Source: Chloroflexota bacterium (GTDB lineage: Bacteria > Chloroflexota > Anaerolineae > UBA2200). From it: DNA of 64,000 nucleotides. The position numbers were made by a program, and so were the translations under genes. Below are positions 2,349 to 6,771 of the stretch, piece after piece; position 1 is the stretch's first letter; every line of letters begins with the position of its first letter. The stretch covers positions 269,988-333,987 of the forward strand of contig JACIWX010000002.1 of the NCBI GenBank assembly GCA_014360755.1, read 5' to 3'. The notes beneath the pieces were generated by a model, which saw only the letters and a list, made by a program, of their open reading frames with translations, did not search any database and was not told the DNA's origin.

Positions 2349-4073
2349 GTGATCAAGAGAACACTTCTTGGGTTAGGGCTGCTCATCATTCTGTTTGCTT
2401 GGTGCGCCACAGCCATTCAGGCACAAGACCCGGTCACGCTGAACCGGTCAGAGTACTATATTACTGTCCTCCAGGATGGCCGGCTGCGAGTGAAGTACGA
2501 ACTGACCTTCACCGAACACGAAAGCGGCCGCGACCGCATCCAAGAACTCCCCCCATTGGAATCACCGCACACGCTGATTGAAGCGTATGGCACAGGGCCA
2601 GAGGGGCGCTTCAGGGTCTCTCTGCAACCCACGGGCAAAGCCGATGTCTATTCGGCAGTGTTCTCTCAGCGCACACAACGCAACGGCCAATACATCATCA
2701 CCATACGCTACACGGTGGACCGTTCCGTCTTTGACCCCACCACCATAGATGGCGAAGAGTACCGCGCGGTTGGCTGGGCTTCGGGGCAGTGGCAATTGCC
2801 CATCGAGGTGCTCGCCGCTACCTTCGTCCTGCCGATTGAGCTGCCCGCAGAAATCACGCAGCCAGAACAAGTTACCGATGAATTGGTCAACCGCGCAGGG
2901 GTGAAGGTTGGTAACCTGAGCGCTTTTAACCGTTGGGTGTATTTCCCGACTCCCGATACATCCACCGGCAAAAACTGGCTCTCTATTTATGTAGAGCAAA
3001 GGAATGTGCCCCCACGCGGCAAGATGCAGCCCCCCTTCTACCTGCGTGCCTCCACTATCCCGGTAACGCGCGAGACTGAAATCCCCCTCTACCCTACGCC
3101 ACAACCCACCCCGACGGCAGTCGGCTGGACCTCCGCCGCGCTGGCTTTGATCTTCTGCGTGGCACTGGGCACAATCCTCGCCGTAGTGCTGATCGTTGCC
3201 TTCATCGTGCGGCGACGTAAGAAGAAATCGGTTTACGAACCTCCCGAGATTGAACTGGAAACCTTTGAAACGCCCGGCGTGGTGCCGGATTTGAATGCCA
3301 TCGAAGCCGCCTTCTACATGGGCAATTCGGCGCGCACGATTACGCTGATTGTGCTCTCGCTCGCCAACCGCGGCGTGTTGACCATCATCAACCGCAATCC
3401 GCTGCAGTTGGAAGTTACCAATCCTAAAGCCCAACTGAACGCGTATGAACAGGCGCTGGTAGATGCCATCCAGGAAGACGGCACCATTGACCCAGCCCAA
3501 ATACCCACCATCTTGAACGCCATCGCCGCTACGCTGCAGCCCAAGATATGGAATGCTGACCCACAGGCGACGAAGGAAACCTACGAAAGGAAAATCCGTT
3601 CCGCCTGGGAGGAATTCGAGCGCGCGCCGCGCCCCGTGGCATCGGGACCAGAGGTCTGGCGACAACCATATACGCCCTGGATCATCATCAGCGATCGCTA
3701 CCGACCACGCCCATCTGCGGCACCGACGGGGCCCGCAGAACCCTCGCCCTTGATCCGCGCTGCAGAGGAAGCGGTAACGCCCATCGAGAGCCTCGCCCGC
3801 GATGTGAGCCGCAGCATCGAGACGGCCGTCTCGCGCGTGGCAACCGGGCTGGAAGCAGGGATGGCGCGCCTGACCGGCCGCGAACCATCGGCAGCGCCTG
3901 GCTATGACGCCTGCCATAGCGCATGTCACAGCGCTTGTCACAGCGCTTGCGTCCATGACGCTTGCCATAGCGCCTGTGTCCACGACGCCTGTCACAGCGC
4001 CTGCCACAGCGCCTGCGTCTGTCACAGCGCCTGCCACAGTGCCTGCCACAGCGCCTGCGTCGGCCGTTTCTAA
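2349..4073 (+). CDS. DUF2207-family membrane protein with a C-terminal (Ala-Cys-His-Ser)n Cys/His repeat tail. Start revised to GTG 2349, downstream of RBS AAGGAGGG.
   Basis: Signal peptide [22 protein letters not shown]. DUF2207-like N-domain [19 protein letters not shown]. One TM followed by RRRKKK (positive-inside). The last ~55 aa read [54 protein letters not shown]. It is a paralog of the 9588..11474 protein. Confidence 0.7.
   Translation: [574 protein letters not shown]
3909..4061 (+). repeat. Imperfect 12-bp tandem repeat (gcY tgY cac agc), ~12 units, encoding the ACHS/ACVHD tail.
   Basis: Direct reading of the sequence. The alternative frames encode low-complexity PATAPA/LSQRL strings, so only the CDS frame is meaningful. 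Confidence 0.85.
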
Positions 4074-4142
4074 ATATGGTCGGCTAGTTGGTTAGTCTGT
4101 TGGTTGTTTCAGCGGTTATCCGGAAAGAAGCAGAGGAAATCT

Positions 4143-5597: not shown

Positions 5598-5607
5598 AGG
5601 GGAGAAC

Positions 5608-6771
5608 ATGGCAACAACGATGACATTGGGCAACTTTTATTCGTACATACGTAATAACCGCAAACGCATCGCTGACATCTACCGCGAGATCGAAGAAATC
5701 CAATACCAGTTCAACGACTTGCATGCCAGGCTCTTGCAAGGGCGGCAAAAGCTCATAGATACTTACGTCCCTCTTTTGCTGAAGACGGATGACCTGCCGG
5801 CAGATCTCGCACAGCTGCTGGCTACGCAAGAAAAGGTCGAGCGCGATGCCCTTCAGAAGGAAATCTCCGCGTTGGAGGAAGAAACCGCACTCAAGCGGCA
5901 AAAAGCGGATCAACTCATTAAGCAAGCACAAGAGCAAATCGCTCAACTGCGCCAGCAAAACCCTATTCTGAACGAACAAGAGGAGCAACTGAAAGCGCGT
6001 CGTGCCTCTATCGAGCGCGAGATCCAACGGCTGGACAACGAACTCAAACGGTTGGGGTGCTTCCCTATCGGTTGGTTGACCAACTACTTCCGACGTCGTC
6101 GCTTGCTCAAGCAGCGAAGAAAACTGGCGGAGAACCTGGAGGCAATCAACCGCGGGATTCGAGCAGTGCGCGCAAAGTGGCAGGAAGAAAAGAAACGCCT
6201 ACAGGAGAGCCAAGCCGAATTGCAGAGCCAATGGCAAGCGCTCAGCGTAGAAGTCGCACAGCTCCAAGCGAGGCTAGATGACCTCACGGCGAATATCGAG
6301 GAGTACAGCAAGCAGCGCGCGGTGCGGAATTGGCTGAGCAACCTGCAAGACCTGCCGGCAACCGATGAGCCTTGGCGCGAGCGCCTGGCACCATTGGTAG
6401 AACTGAACCGCAAAAAAGCCCAGTATGAAGCTGGCTTGACTTCGGTAGCCGAGATCCTGGGATTGCTGAAAGGCTTGGGCGAAGGCATGGACCGCTTTAT
6501 CCGCAGTGTGGCGACGGTATATGAGGAGCAACAGCGTTACAAACTCCCCAACCTTCGCCTCAACCTTTCCGACGCTGTTACTTCCTTCCATGCTATTTGG
6601 CCCGATTTCCAGGCCAAAGTCAAAGATGAAAAGTACTTGGGTGCTCACCCTCTGGAATTCAGCCAACGCATAAAGGAAGTGGTGCAACAAAAACTCCATG
6701 AATCCGCGATACAGAAGATGTTCGAGGATATGGGGAATGCTCTGACCGAAGCCACGAAAGCCTGGCGCTAA
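5608..6771 (+). CDS. Coiled-coil hypothetical protein, co-transcribed with the rSAM maturase (11-bp gap).
   Basis: Long heptad-rich Q/E/K/L segments. No enzymatic motif. Confidence 0.55.
   Translation: MATTMTLGNFYSYIRNNRKRIADIYREIEEIQYQFNDLHARLLQGRQKLIDTYVPLLLKTDDLPADLAQLLATQEKVERDALQKEISALEEETALKRQKADQLIKQAQEQIAQLRQQNPILNEQEEQLKARRASIEREIQRLDNELKRLGCFPIGWLTNYFRRRRLLKQRRKLAENLEAINRGIRAVRAKWQEEKKRLQESQAELQSQWQALSVEVAQLQARLDDLTANIEEYSKQRAVRNWLSNLQDLPATDEPWRERLAPLVELNRKKAQYEAGLTSVAEILGLLKGLGEGMDRFIRSVATVYEEQQRYKLPNLRLNLSDAVTSFHAIWPDFQAKVKDEKYLGAHPLEFSQRIKEVVQQKLHESAIQKMFEDMGNALTEATKAWR

Follow-up and report, generated by a model that had tools for sequence, protein, structure and literature searches.

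Two neighboring genes in the 64,000-nucleotide stretch of Chloroflexota DNA analyzed here (hereafter, the window), one encoding a membrane protein with a Cys- and His-rich C-terminal tail (2349..4073, + strand) and the other a radical SAM enzyme (4143..5597, + strand), appear to constitute a dedicated substrate-enzyme pair, in which the enzyme modifies the tail cysteines and the tail stays on the membrane protein; we put the probability of this reading at roughly 0.6. The retention of the tail letter for letter in very distant microbes, taken with the near-constant adjacency of the enzyme gene, suggests that the system is probably an undescribed and widespread modification of a whole membrane protein. 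To our knowledge, the PqqD-domain radical SAM/SPASM maturases described so far act almost exclusively on short peptides, which give rise to antibiotics, signals, and free cofactors; unlike these, the target here would be one end of a large membrane protein. Representatives occur in several bacterial phyla and in Asgard archaea, and the target sequence is conserved to a degree that is normal only for cofactor precursors or active sites. Our literature searches found no paper on this combination of tail protein and radical SAM enzyme. If the reading is correct, it extends RiPP-type chemistry to the permanent modification of membrane proteins, gives a first clue to what the large and functionally obscure DUF2207/TIGR04222 group of low-complexity-tailed membrane proteins does, and offers, for the study of processive radical SAM catalysis, a short and defined enzyme-substrate pair that is easy to express and presents 13 repeated sites in one substrate.

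The tail-bearing protein (574 aa) has homologs with a matching architecture in 62 loci, and an index-free profile search of its family recovered at least 705 clusters at 50% identity. Its longest ORF is 2322-4073, and the likely start is the GTG at 2349, which has an AAGGAGG 5 nt upstream. From the N terminus, it is composed of a signal or anchor segment, a DUF2207-type ectodomain, one transmembrane (TM) helix, a cytoplasmic domain, a helical linker, and the Cys/His tail. The sequence-only reading had identified it as a DUF2207 membrane protein ending in a Cys/His repeat, and the Pfam search agrees, with the DUF2207 N-terminal domain (PF09972) recovered at 31 bits versus a cut-off of 24.4. DUF2207_C (PF20990) reached 18 bits versus a cut-off of 33, in a match covering just the first ~90 of 247 profile positions, and TIGR04222 matched weakly at 38 bits versus 43. 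The paralog at 9588-11474 (− strand) is, as previously recognized, a complete DUF2207 protein that ends in poly-Gly; it scores 164.6 bits with PF20990. A Kyte-Doolittle hydropathy scan recovered the N-terminal signal/anchor and a single TM segment (3111..3218, + strand; aa 264 to 299 in ORF numbering), which is a helix with a pLDDT of >90 in the AF2 model and is followed by the RRRKKK stretch that had been pointed out earlier. By the positive-inside rule, this arrangement of one TM helix and RRRKKK would place the tail in the cytoplasm together with the soluble enzyme. In the cytoplasmic domain (3219..3640, + strand), conserved in bacteria and Asgard archaea alike, the juxtamembrane motif [25 protein letters not shown] is accompanied by a unit that resembles a winged helix and has two long helices. 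The tail is immediately preceded by a moderately conserved, amphipathic helical linker (3750..3908, + strand), delineated from its conservation pattern and modeled by AF2 as a long helix with low to medium confidence; it is a candidate leader-like segment that might be recognized by the PqqD domain of the enzyme.

The tail (3909..4070, + strand; aa 530 to 583 in ORF numbering), which we propose as the substrate or core, reads (ACHS)3[14 protein letters not shown](ACHS)2-ACV-CHS-(ACHS)2-ACVGRF and holds 13 Cys and 11 His in its 54 residues. The repeat is as had been described, except that the count of about 12 tandem units becomes 13 Cys-containing units. Its 51-aa core is identical in 26 independent loci despite a mean identity of 55% (minimum, 35%) at third codon positions and despite Ser codons that switch between AGY and TCN, so that the tail is beyond chance and purifying selection on the peptide is extreme. 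The irregular units, ACVHD and CVC, occupy fixed positions and the length is likewise fixed; the window-type tail is a fixed module instead of a loosely repeated stretch, and in its Anaerolineae form it is invariant over 49 to 54 aa. Positions with Ala and Ser are as invariant as those with Cys and His, and the tail barely changes while the body of the membrane protein diverges to 27 to 76% identity and the enzyme to 46 to 92%. No tail residue other than Cys is universal in the wider family, where 193 of 214 Cys-Cys intervals have a spacing of 4; this agrees with a reactive role for Cys. The tails of a distant subfamily are of the form (ACH[SD])n, with variable length and 6 to 18 Cys, and some relatives have other residues in place of His or lack it, among them P0240 and P0273, the latter without any His. 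In all 62 distinct tail ORFs from the loci, the tail is fused to one and the same membrane-protein body; a free-standing short tail peptide was not seen among them, and the short entries in the protein database look like fragments. A search of that database with the tail alone gave no match, its word index seeming poorly suited to a low-complexity tail, and one with the cytoplasmic domain plus the tail gave 28 matches only, mostly fragments or proteins with collapsed tails. The low confidence of the AF2 model over the tail (about 50) counts against a modification.

The enzyme (484 aa) starts at ATG 4143, as judged from alignment with its homologs; it is the next gene, as had been stated, with a gap of 69 nt in place of the 30 bp originally given. 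All three domains of the proposed fusion of a PqqD-like RRE to a radical SAM/SPASM module were found by Pfam, namely, PqqD (30.8 bits versus a cut-off of 23.4), Radical_SAM (E = 5.7e-24), and SPASM (33.1 versus 21.5; TIGR04085, 44.6 versus 27). NCBIfam models of PqqD chaperones match the N-terminal domain, all below their cut-offs, and residues 42 to 114 of the AF2 model show the RRE topology, in which three strands precede three helices. The CX3CX2C motif is present as CQNKCLFC, with C148, C152, and C155 invariant in 16 homologs; in the SPASM region, C363, C377, C395, C432, C435, C441, C442, and C445 are invariant and C379 is conserved in at least 90%. With its PqqD domain and these motifs, the enzyme is fully equipped as a peptide maturase. 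The solved folds nearest to its AF2 model are those of SkfB, CteB, SuiB, anSME, and PqqE; because that model is mediocre (pLDDT, 60.7), these matches confirm no more than the general class. Every named NCBIfam radical SAM family scored far below its cut-off, both with the full-length enzyme (AhbD, 137 bits versus 500; PqqE, 115 versus 381; ACGX system TIGR04340, 100 versus 400; StsB, 83 versus 625) and with the C-terminal SPASM fragment alone (anSME TIGR03942, 24 versus 349; PapB, 17.4 versus 340; QhpD TIGR03906, 11.6 versus 453; SCIFF, 8.9 versus 425), and none of the last four is among the 25 best full-length matches. This places the enzyme outside the families whose substrate is encoded elsewhere. 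Two features count against the modification: the top-scoring models are those of the tetrapyrrole enzymes AhbD and NirJ, far below their cut-offs of at least 500 (137, 114, and 102 bits, the last being NirJ), and the enzyme, with more than 2,600 homologs at E ≤ 1e-20, is 63 to 93% identical within Anaerolineae, which is unusually conserved for a RiPP maturase. Such high conservation is more typical of cofactor or housekeeping pathways.

Gene neighborhood analysis showed that the two genes are conserved together in 55 of the 57 loci whose upstream flank extends 3 kb or more (54 by automatic count plus L031, where the tail is partly masked), with a median gap of 70 nt across loci. In the remaining two, L051 and L061, no tail was found despite a good flank, and we count these against the pairing. 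The linked loci come from Chloroflexota, Armatimonadota, Caldisericales, and Asgard-archaeal MAGs; an extra gene separates the two in Armatimonadota, and the Asgard MAGs have the two on opposite strands, about 2.6 kb apart. In the reverse direction, the enzyme was present in 3 of 3 informative loci of the distant tail subfamily, directly downstream of the tail gene and 39 to 46% identical to that of the window; two family members, L081, with a degenerate tail, and L088, with a (CA)n tail, showed no enzyme within the available flank and likewise count against the pairing. Enzyme identity also covaries with tail-protein identity (Spearman rho, 0.89; n = 62). The enzyme is thus accompanied by a conserved adjacent target-sequence gene, as befits the RRE-dependent radical SAM/SPASM maturase class, and this conservation, together with its standing outside the named families, supports the maturase-substrate arrangement on a protein tail that the sequence-only reading had put forward as a candidate.

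Further genes follow on the + strand. The coiled-coil protein (5608..6771; 387 aa, with a central hydrophobic LGWLT loop) begins 10 nt past the enzyme stop, in the downstream position ascribed to it, with a Shine-Dalgarno sequence of its own; it is present in 67 of 80 loci, is missing from the archaeal ones among them, and is a bacterial accessory of the cassette. Searches with its profile against PDB, Pfam, NCBIfam, and PADLOC returned only coiled-coil, apolipoprotein, and SMC-like noise. Two archaeal candidates for its counterpart were rejected, a 407-aa neighbor that is not a homolog and the gene after the enzyme, which is alanine-racemase-like. Next is a co-conserved accessory with two TM helices and a cytoplasmic C-terminal zinc ribbon (7024..7515; 60 of 80 loci), also found in Caldisericales; it and the coiled-coil protein co-occur in bacteria only. 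A weakly similar winged-helix and zinc-ribbon protein in an archaeal locus (L076, 8655-9401, − strand) is a possible analog of it. The third is an M6/InhA-like metallopeptidase with a MAM domain and an N-terminal membrane anchor (7525..9540; 41 of 80 loci), which is probably extracytoplasmic, is syntenic in Anaerolineae only, and is a doubtful member of the system. No transporter, exporter, cytoplasmic protease, or leader peptidase was conserved in the cassette among the loci compared.

We propose the following mechanism. The substrate would be an integral membrane protein whose cytoplasmic C terminus is a fixed 54-residue module with Cys at nearly every fourth residue, usually followed by His. 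The enzyme, presumably cytoplasmic, would most likely dock through its PqqD-type domain on the helical segment that leads into the tail and then modify the 13 Cys-containing four-residue units in succession. The chemistry would most likely be the formation of sulfur-to-carbon (thioether) cross-links of the kind known from sactipeptides, ranthipeptides, and QhpC. PapB, which installs one thioether per repeated Cys motif, serves as our model for it. With neither an exporter nor a cytoplasmic leader peptidase in the cassette, the modified tail probably stays on the membrane protein, where it could act as a rigid, His-lined, and possibly metal-binding element, in bacteria working with the coiled-coil and zinc-ribbon proteins. 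As a more tentative extension, the modified tail may be a new protein-derived, membrane-tethered cofactor or metal site, in which a ladder of Cys-derived cross-links carries an ordered row of His. Such a site would be conserved from Chloroflexota to Asgard archaea and would be the first case of RiPP-type radical SAM chemistry building a permanent part of an integral membrane protein and not a secreted natural product.

Several known systems share parts of this arrangement. The ACGX system, to which the sequence-only reading had likened the pair, has the same four-residue Ala-Cys-x-x periodicity beside a SPASM enzyme, and TIGR04340 is among the better partial matches of our enzyme, especially in the SPASM part. 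The idea of a SPASM target with Cys at every fourth residue holds, here in fusion to a large membrane protein, whereas membership does not: the score is far below the cut-off, the units are ACHS/ACVHD and not ACGX, the target is a 574-aa membrane protein and not a short peptide, and the NCBIfam peptide models gave no match to the tail at E ≤ 10. The nearest annotation, and a closer precedent, is Haft's small "Cxxx-repeat radical SAM target" (TIGR04117, Syntroph_Cxxx; PF27846, tSAM_targ_Cxxx_rpt), which likewise has Cys at every fourth residue of the C terminus and an adjacent radical SAM gene and is itself a bioinformatic prediction only. The window tail scores 6.7 bits with TIGR04117 versus a cut-off of 50; tails of the distant subfamily align weakly with its repeat half (E = 0.003 to 0.7; best, 17.4 bits), and precomputed PF27846 matches occur on P0135 (weak) and P0141 only. 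In contrast to the small proteins described by this profile of ~98 positions, with their variable repeat, our repeat ends integral membrane proteins of 570 to 880 aa, is invariant in the Anaerolineae type, and is paired with an enzyme that matches no named NCBIfam maturase family.

The sactipeptide, ranthipeptide, and SCIFF maturases (CteB, SkfB, PapB, and Tte1186) combine an RRE, a radical SAM domain, and a SPASM/twitch domain with a Cys-rich target; our enzyme scores far below their family cut-offs, and their substrates are short, exported or free peptides, in contrast to a core that is borne on a membrane protein with no exporter. For a retained product, the closest functional precedent is QhpD acting on QhpC of quinohemoprotein amine dehydrogenase, where a SPASM radical SAM enzyme cross-links Cys within a protein that keeps the modification. 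QhpC differs in being a small soluble subunit with few cross-links, as against a membrane protein with 13 periodic Cys, and the QhpD model scores far below its cut-off on the SPASM fragment. The anSMEs lack an RRE and act on C/S-x-P/A-x-R; an anSME identity was rejected on the low score of the SPASM fragment, the presence of the PqqD domain, and a tail without the sulfatase motif. A defense-system reading was likewise rejected, PADLOC giving only generic radical SAM (viperin) similarity.

Other explanations need to be weighed against the modification. The tail might be an unmodified metal- or Fe-S-binding element (a sensor, store, or cluster donor) and the enzyme might act on a lipid, a small molecule, or another protein, their link being functional only. 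We consider this rather unlikely. Even when unmodified, 13 Cys and 11 His within 54 residues would bind metals or Fe-S clusters, and an alternative substrate would accord with the high conservation of the enzyme, the tetrapyrrole enzymes atop its NCBIfam list, and its best PDB sequence match, the lipid-modifying GDGT-MAS, which covers the core radical SAM domain only. However, the PqqD/RRE domain is conserved in the enzyme family, all nonpeptide families fall far below their cut-offs, the invariance of Ala and Ser goes beyond the needs of simple chelation, and the tail of P0273 manages without His. Metal binding and modification of the tail are not mutually exclusive.

It is also unlikely that the membrane protein is a mere carrier from which the modified tail is cut off as a free peptide or small-cofactor precursor, in the manner of PQQ or mycofactocin. 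Tail invariance and enzyme conservation do resemble those of the cofactor precursors PqqA and MftA, and the syntenic metallopeptidase could be imagined as the protease; yet that peptidase, membrane anchored and probably outside the cell, is missing outside Anaerolineae, neither a transporter nor a cytoplasmic protease is conserved in the cassette, and the tail is fused to the membrane-protein body throughout. The resemblance of the overlapping CHSAC-H units to CX3CH, and the heme-pathway enzymes among the top NCBIfam matches, would suit a dense multiheme tail with variant heme c attachment sites; we rejected this very improbable reading, as the tail is predicted to be cytoplasmic, the motifs are overlapping and much too closely packed for heme to be attached, His is exchanged or missing in some relatives, the cassette has no heme-attachment genes, and AhbD and NirJ are remote by score. 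An origin of the tail in replication slippage, which would make it meaningless low-complexity sequence, might be suggested by its 12-nt tandem repeat (TRF; 3908-4058) and the collapsed or frameshifted tails of some database entries; it has a negligible probability and is refuted by the codon analysis of the 26 identical cores and by the fixed length and fixed irregular units. Homogenization of the DNA repeat was rejected on the same codon analysis.

Like the tail protein, DUF2207/TIGR04222 proteins have a signal peptide, a DUF2207 N-terminal domain, a TM helix, a cytoplasmic domain, and a low-complexity tail; they differ in having three TM helices after the ectodomain instead of one and a Gly-rich tail in place of a Cys/His-rich tail tied to a dedicated enzyme. 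What papers on DUF2207 report is limited to a frequent pairing with LemA and, in S. mutans, a phenotype concerning stress and biofilm. As to flanking signals in the window, a promoter-like site, TTGGAA-17-TATATT with an extended −10 TG (2303..2331, + strand), lies just upstream of the tail-protein gene, and is a weak, consensus-only match. Within 2349-9540, there is no terminator-like site comparable in strength to the one at the end of the gene row, weaker ones being no commoner than in shuffled sequence; that terminator-like site is a strong GC-rich hairpin with a T-run (9543..9566, − strand).

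On the forward strand, the cassette starts with an ORF (2322-4073) for a DUF2207-type membrane protein (here, the tail protein), whose probable start is the GTG at 2349 with AAGGAGG 5 nt upstream. The last 54 residues of this protein (nt 3909-4070, forward strand) form a tail with 13 Cys and 11 His residues, and the corresponding DNA has an underlying 12-nt period as detected by Tandem Repeats Finder. There follow, all on the same strand, the gene for a PqqD-radical SAM-SPASM protein (the enzyme; 4143-5597, with the ATG at 4143 chosen as the start by homolog alignment), that for a 387-aa helical, coiled-coil protein (5608-6771), which begins 10 nt past the enzyme gene, and those for a protein with two transmembrane (TM) segments and a zinc ribbon (7024-7515) and for a membrane-anchored M6/InhA-like peptidase (7525-9540). 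A strong hairpin at 9543-9566 lies at the end of the cassette, and no terminator-like site of comparable strength was found within 2349-9540. ORF, domain, and alignment checks bore out the sequence-only reading's description of this locus, with slight differences in the details of gene starts. The convergent paralog on the reverse strand (9588-11474) is a classical DUF2207 protein: both Pfam domains are present, its ectodomain is followed by three TM helices, and it ends in a poly-Gly tail. Because its synteny extends only to the closest relatives (loci L002, L003, L005, and L006), it is probably not a component of the system. Upstream of the cassette, region 91-2237 holds the C-terminal part of a GHMP/mevalonate-kinase-like gene, as read from its translation, and a GT4-type glycosyltransferase gene. 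These precede the cassette in 34 to 38 Anaerolineae-type loci and are missing in other phyla; hence, their proximity probably reflects synteny rather than a functional tie.

To assess the conservation of this arrangement, we looked for enzyme relatives in one genome per species, recovering 80 loci, which by their labels come from metagenome-assembled genomes (MAGs) of Anaerolineae/Chloroflexota, Armatimonadota, Caldisericales, and Thor-/Promethearchaeota. Six-frame translation of these loci revealed the same tail wherever the flank sufficed. Among the 57 loci in which 3 kb or more of sequence precedes the enzyme gene, 55 have the tail near that gene (54 by automatic count, plus a partly masked copy in L031) at a median distance of 70 nt; the pairing of a DUF2207-tail gene with a radical SAM gene recurs across genomes. 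In L051 and L061, the tail was not found in the flank examined. The pair persists through gene rearrangement: one or two secreted-protein genes lie between its members in some Anaerolineae loci, a flavin-reductase-like gene does so in the Armatimonadota loci, and in Asgard MAGs the two genes lie on opposite strands, about 2.6 kb apart. In Armatimonadia, this intervening gene (e.g., L068, 3279-3923; L066, 1356-1985) encodes an NADPH-dependent FMN-reductase/flavodoxin-like protein that could supply reductant to the radical SAM enzyme. The archaeal tail protein has the same architecture, with a signal peptide, ectodomain, TM helix, cytoplasmic domain, and tail. Across the loci, the more similar the enzymes are, the more similar are the bodies of the tail proteins (Spearman rho = 0.89; n = 62).

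The tail is a fixed module rather than an imprecise repeat. Its commonest form consists of a 51-residue core followed by three variable residues, and the other forms among the loci are a 49-aa form and an archaeal form. The 51-aa core is identical in 26 loci, while their DNA is 80% identical overall and only 55% identical (minimum, 35%) at third codon positions, with Ser residues encoded by AGY in some loci and by TCN in others. In this set of loci, the body of the tail protein is 27 to 76% identical and the enzyme is 46 to 92% identical. An identical core despite such third-position divergence and Ser codon class switches shows that the tail is under very strong selection at the peptide level. 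The codon divergence over the identical core also excludes slippage or repeat homogenization as the origin of the tail.

For more distant members, 1.84 billion cluster representatives were searched, with no word index, using a profile that spans the TM helix, cytoplasmic domain, and tail; this gave 705 clusters at E ≤ 1e-3, 440 of them at E ≤ 1e-10. Most full-length members end in (ACH[SDGNH])n-ACVSGGxH with 6 to 18 Cys residues; the Cys-Cys spacing is 4 in 193 of 214 intervals, with Ala preceding Cys in 201 cases and His following it in 184. Deviant tails include (CA)n without His (P0273) and units of a different sequence (P0240). In a distant subfamily with variable-length (ACH[SD])n tails, the enzyme gene directly follows the tail gene in all three loci with a usable downstream flank (L083, L086, and L087), its products being 39 to 46% identical to the window enzyme, and L086 additionally carries the coiled-coil and Zn-ribbon genes. 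In the frameshifted database entries P0225 and P0280, reading continues from the tail into the enzyme. No enzyme was found in the flank examined of L081, which has a degenerate tail, nor any radical SAM gene within the short flank of L088, the locus of P0273 with its (CA)n tail; just upstream of the latter lie a TldD/PmbA peptidase pair and a JAB-domain gene (355-3114), which may represent an alternative handling of a related tail. In many cases, publicly predicted members are truncated, frameshifted across the repeat, or collapsed in the tail; P0121, P0122, P0123, P0127, P0130, P0185, P0225, and P0280 are among them. Apparently, the 12-nt DNA repeat disrupts assemblies and gene calls, and this may be why the family has gone unnoticed; its members are named "DUF2207 domain-containing protein" or "hypothetical protein."

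From its N terminus, the tail protein comprises a signal/anchor, a DUF2207-type N-terminal domain (PF09972; 31 bits versus a cutoff of 24.4), one strongly hydrophobic helix (aa 264 to 299) followed by RRRKKK, a region of ~230 residues with weak, subthreshold similarity to DUF2207_C and TIGR04222, and the tail. AF2, run on a small alignment, confidently predicted (pLDDT above 90) the TM helix and a cytoplasmic domain of ~115 residues, with two helices, a beta hairpin, and two long helices; a lower-confidence long helix comes next, and the tail itself has low confidence (about 50). The segment directly before window-type tails is moderately conserved and amphipathic, and the distant subfamily has an F-x-x-F-x-S-x-x-C-[YF]-x-G-[CAP]-F motif ahead of the repeat; both are candidate binding sites for the PqqD domain.

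The enzyme combines radical SAM and SPASM domains with a PqqD-type domain at its N terminus: its PqqD, Radical_SAM, and SPASM domains all score above the Pfam cutoffs, it passes TIGR04085, and the homolog alignment has an invariant CX3CX2C and the full conserved SPASM Cys set. The N-terminal 124 residues alone match the lasso-peptide and PQQ PqqD chaperone models below cutoffs, and in a mediocre AF2 model (pLDDT, 60.7), residues 42 to 114 form three strands and then three helices. The closest solved structures are GDGT-MAS, SkfB, PqqE, and CteB by sequence and SkfB, BlsE, CteB, GDGT-MAS, DesII, SuiB, anSME, and PqqE by fold. None of the named NCBIfam families comes near its cutoff with the full-length protein (score/cutoff: AhbD, 137/500; PqqE, 115/381; NirJ2, 114/500; ACGX, 100/400; GeoRSP, 96/400; StsB, 83/625; HxsC, 80/268) or with the C-terminal SPASM fragment (anSME, 24/349; PapB, 17/340; QhpD, 12/453; SCIFF, 9/425), and public names of homologs are only "radical SAM protein" or "PqqD family peptide modification chaperone."

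Neither the enzyme model nor the repeat unit supports a match to the ACGX system, to which a resemblance was suggested earlier, and no NCBIfam peptide model matches the tail. The closest annotation is TIGR04117 ("Cys-Xaa-Xaa-Xaa repeat radical SAM target protein"), from which PF27846 derives. Against TIGR04117, with its cutoff of 50 bits, distant-subfamily tails give weak hits (at most 17 bits) and the window tail essentially none (6.7 bits). That family, itself only a prediction, consists of small proteins, whereas the proposed target here is the end of an integral membrane protein. Thus, a radical SAM/SPASM enzyme with a Cys-periodic target is of a known kind; what is new is that the proposed target is fused to a conserved integral membrane protein, that a core of 49 to 54 residues is almost absolutely conserved across phyla and domains, and that the product apparently stays on the protein. 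No paper on this system was found in the literature searched.

The best-supported reading is that the enzyme would modify the tail, because the two genes are obligatorily linked, the enzyme carries a peptide-recognition domain, tail and enzyme are both on the predicted cytoplasmic side, and Cys is the sole universal feature of the tails. The modified tail would probably remain on the membrane protein, as in QhpC, because no exporter or cytoplasmic protease is conserved in the cassette and the tail is always found on the same membrane-protein body. We assign a probability of about 0.6 to the tail being the enzyme's substrate and remaining attached. SPASM/twitch enzymes acting on Cys-rich targets (AlbA, SkfB, CteB, PapB, and QhpD) form sulfur-to-carbon thioether links, one per repeated motif in the case of PapB, and by analogy such links are a tentative proposal for the tail Cys residues. 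The invariant Ala and Ser positions suggest a role for all four residues of the unit, in either recognition or the final structure, and the His residues might then form a putative ordered metal-binding face. The Cys/His content would also suit a tail that purely binds a metal or Fe-S cluster while the enzyme acts on another substrate, but we consider this unlikely. That the tail is cut off and becomes a free peptide or cofactor is likewise improbable, given the lack of a conserved exporter or cytoplasmic protease. Heme attachment at CX3CH is very improbable, and selection on the peptide leaves practically no room for a meaningless repeat.

The coiled-coil protein occurs in 67 of the 80 loci, the 2TM/Zn-ribbon protein in 60, including Caldisericales, and the M6/InhA-like peptidase in 41, every one Anaerolineae-like. 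The coiled-coil protein has invariant NP, EE..K, and VR..W motifs and a central hydrophobic LGWLT loop, and no relatives of known function were detected. It is absent from the archaeal loci, where a nearby winged-helix/Zn-ribbon protein is only marginally similar to the 2TM/Zn-ribbon protein. Hence, the universal core of the system is the tail protein and the enzyme.

Elsewhere in the window, two tandem genes (24707-29917) encode ClpB/ClpC-like double-AAA+ proteins of 863 and 828 aa. A low-GC region (30000-41500; 0.47 to 0.50 versus 0.53 to 0.59 in most of the remainder) looks like a conflict or defense-type island, encoding, all on the forward strand, an SPFH/Band7 protein (31382-32608), a CHAT-domain protease (33516-35063), an unknown 573-aa protein (35181-36902), a STAND/AAA-TPR protein (36899-39715), and a second radical SAM/SPASM protein, which lacks PqqD (39721-40851). 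Directly after dnaE (50326-53862) lies a gene for a 1,302-aa protein (53847-57755) combining a BNR/sortilin-type beta-propeller with a STAND NTPase domain.
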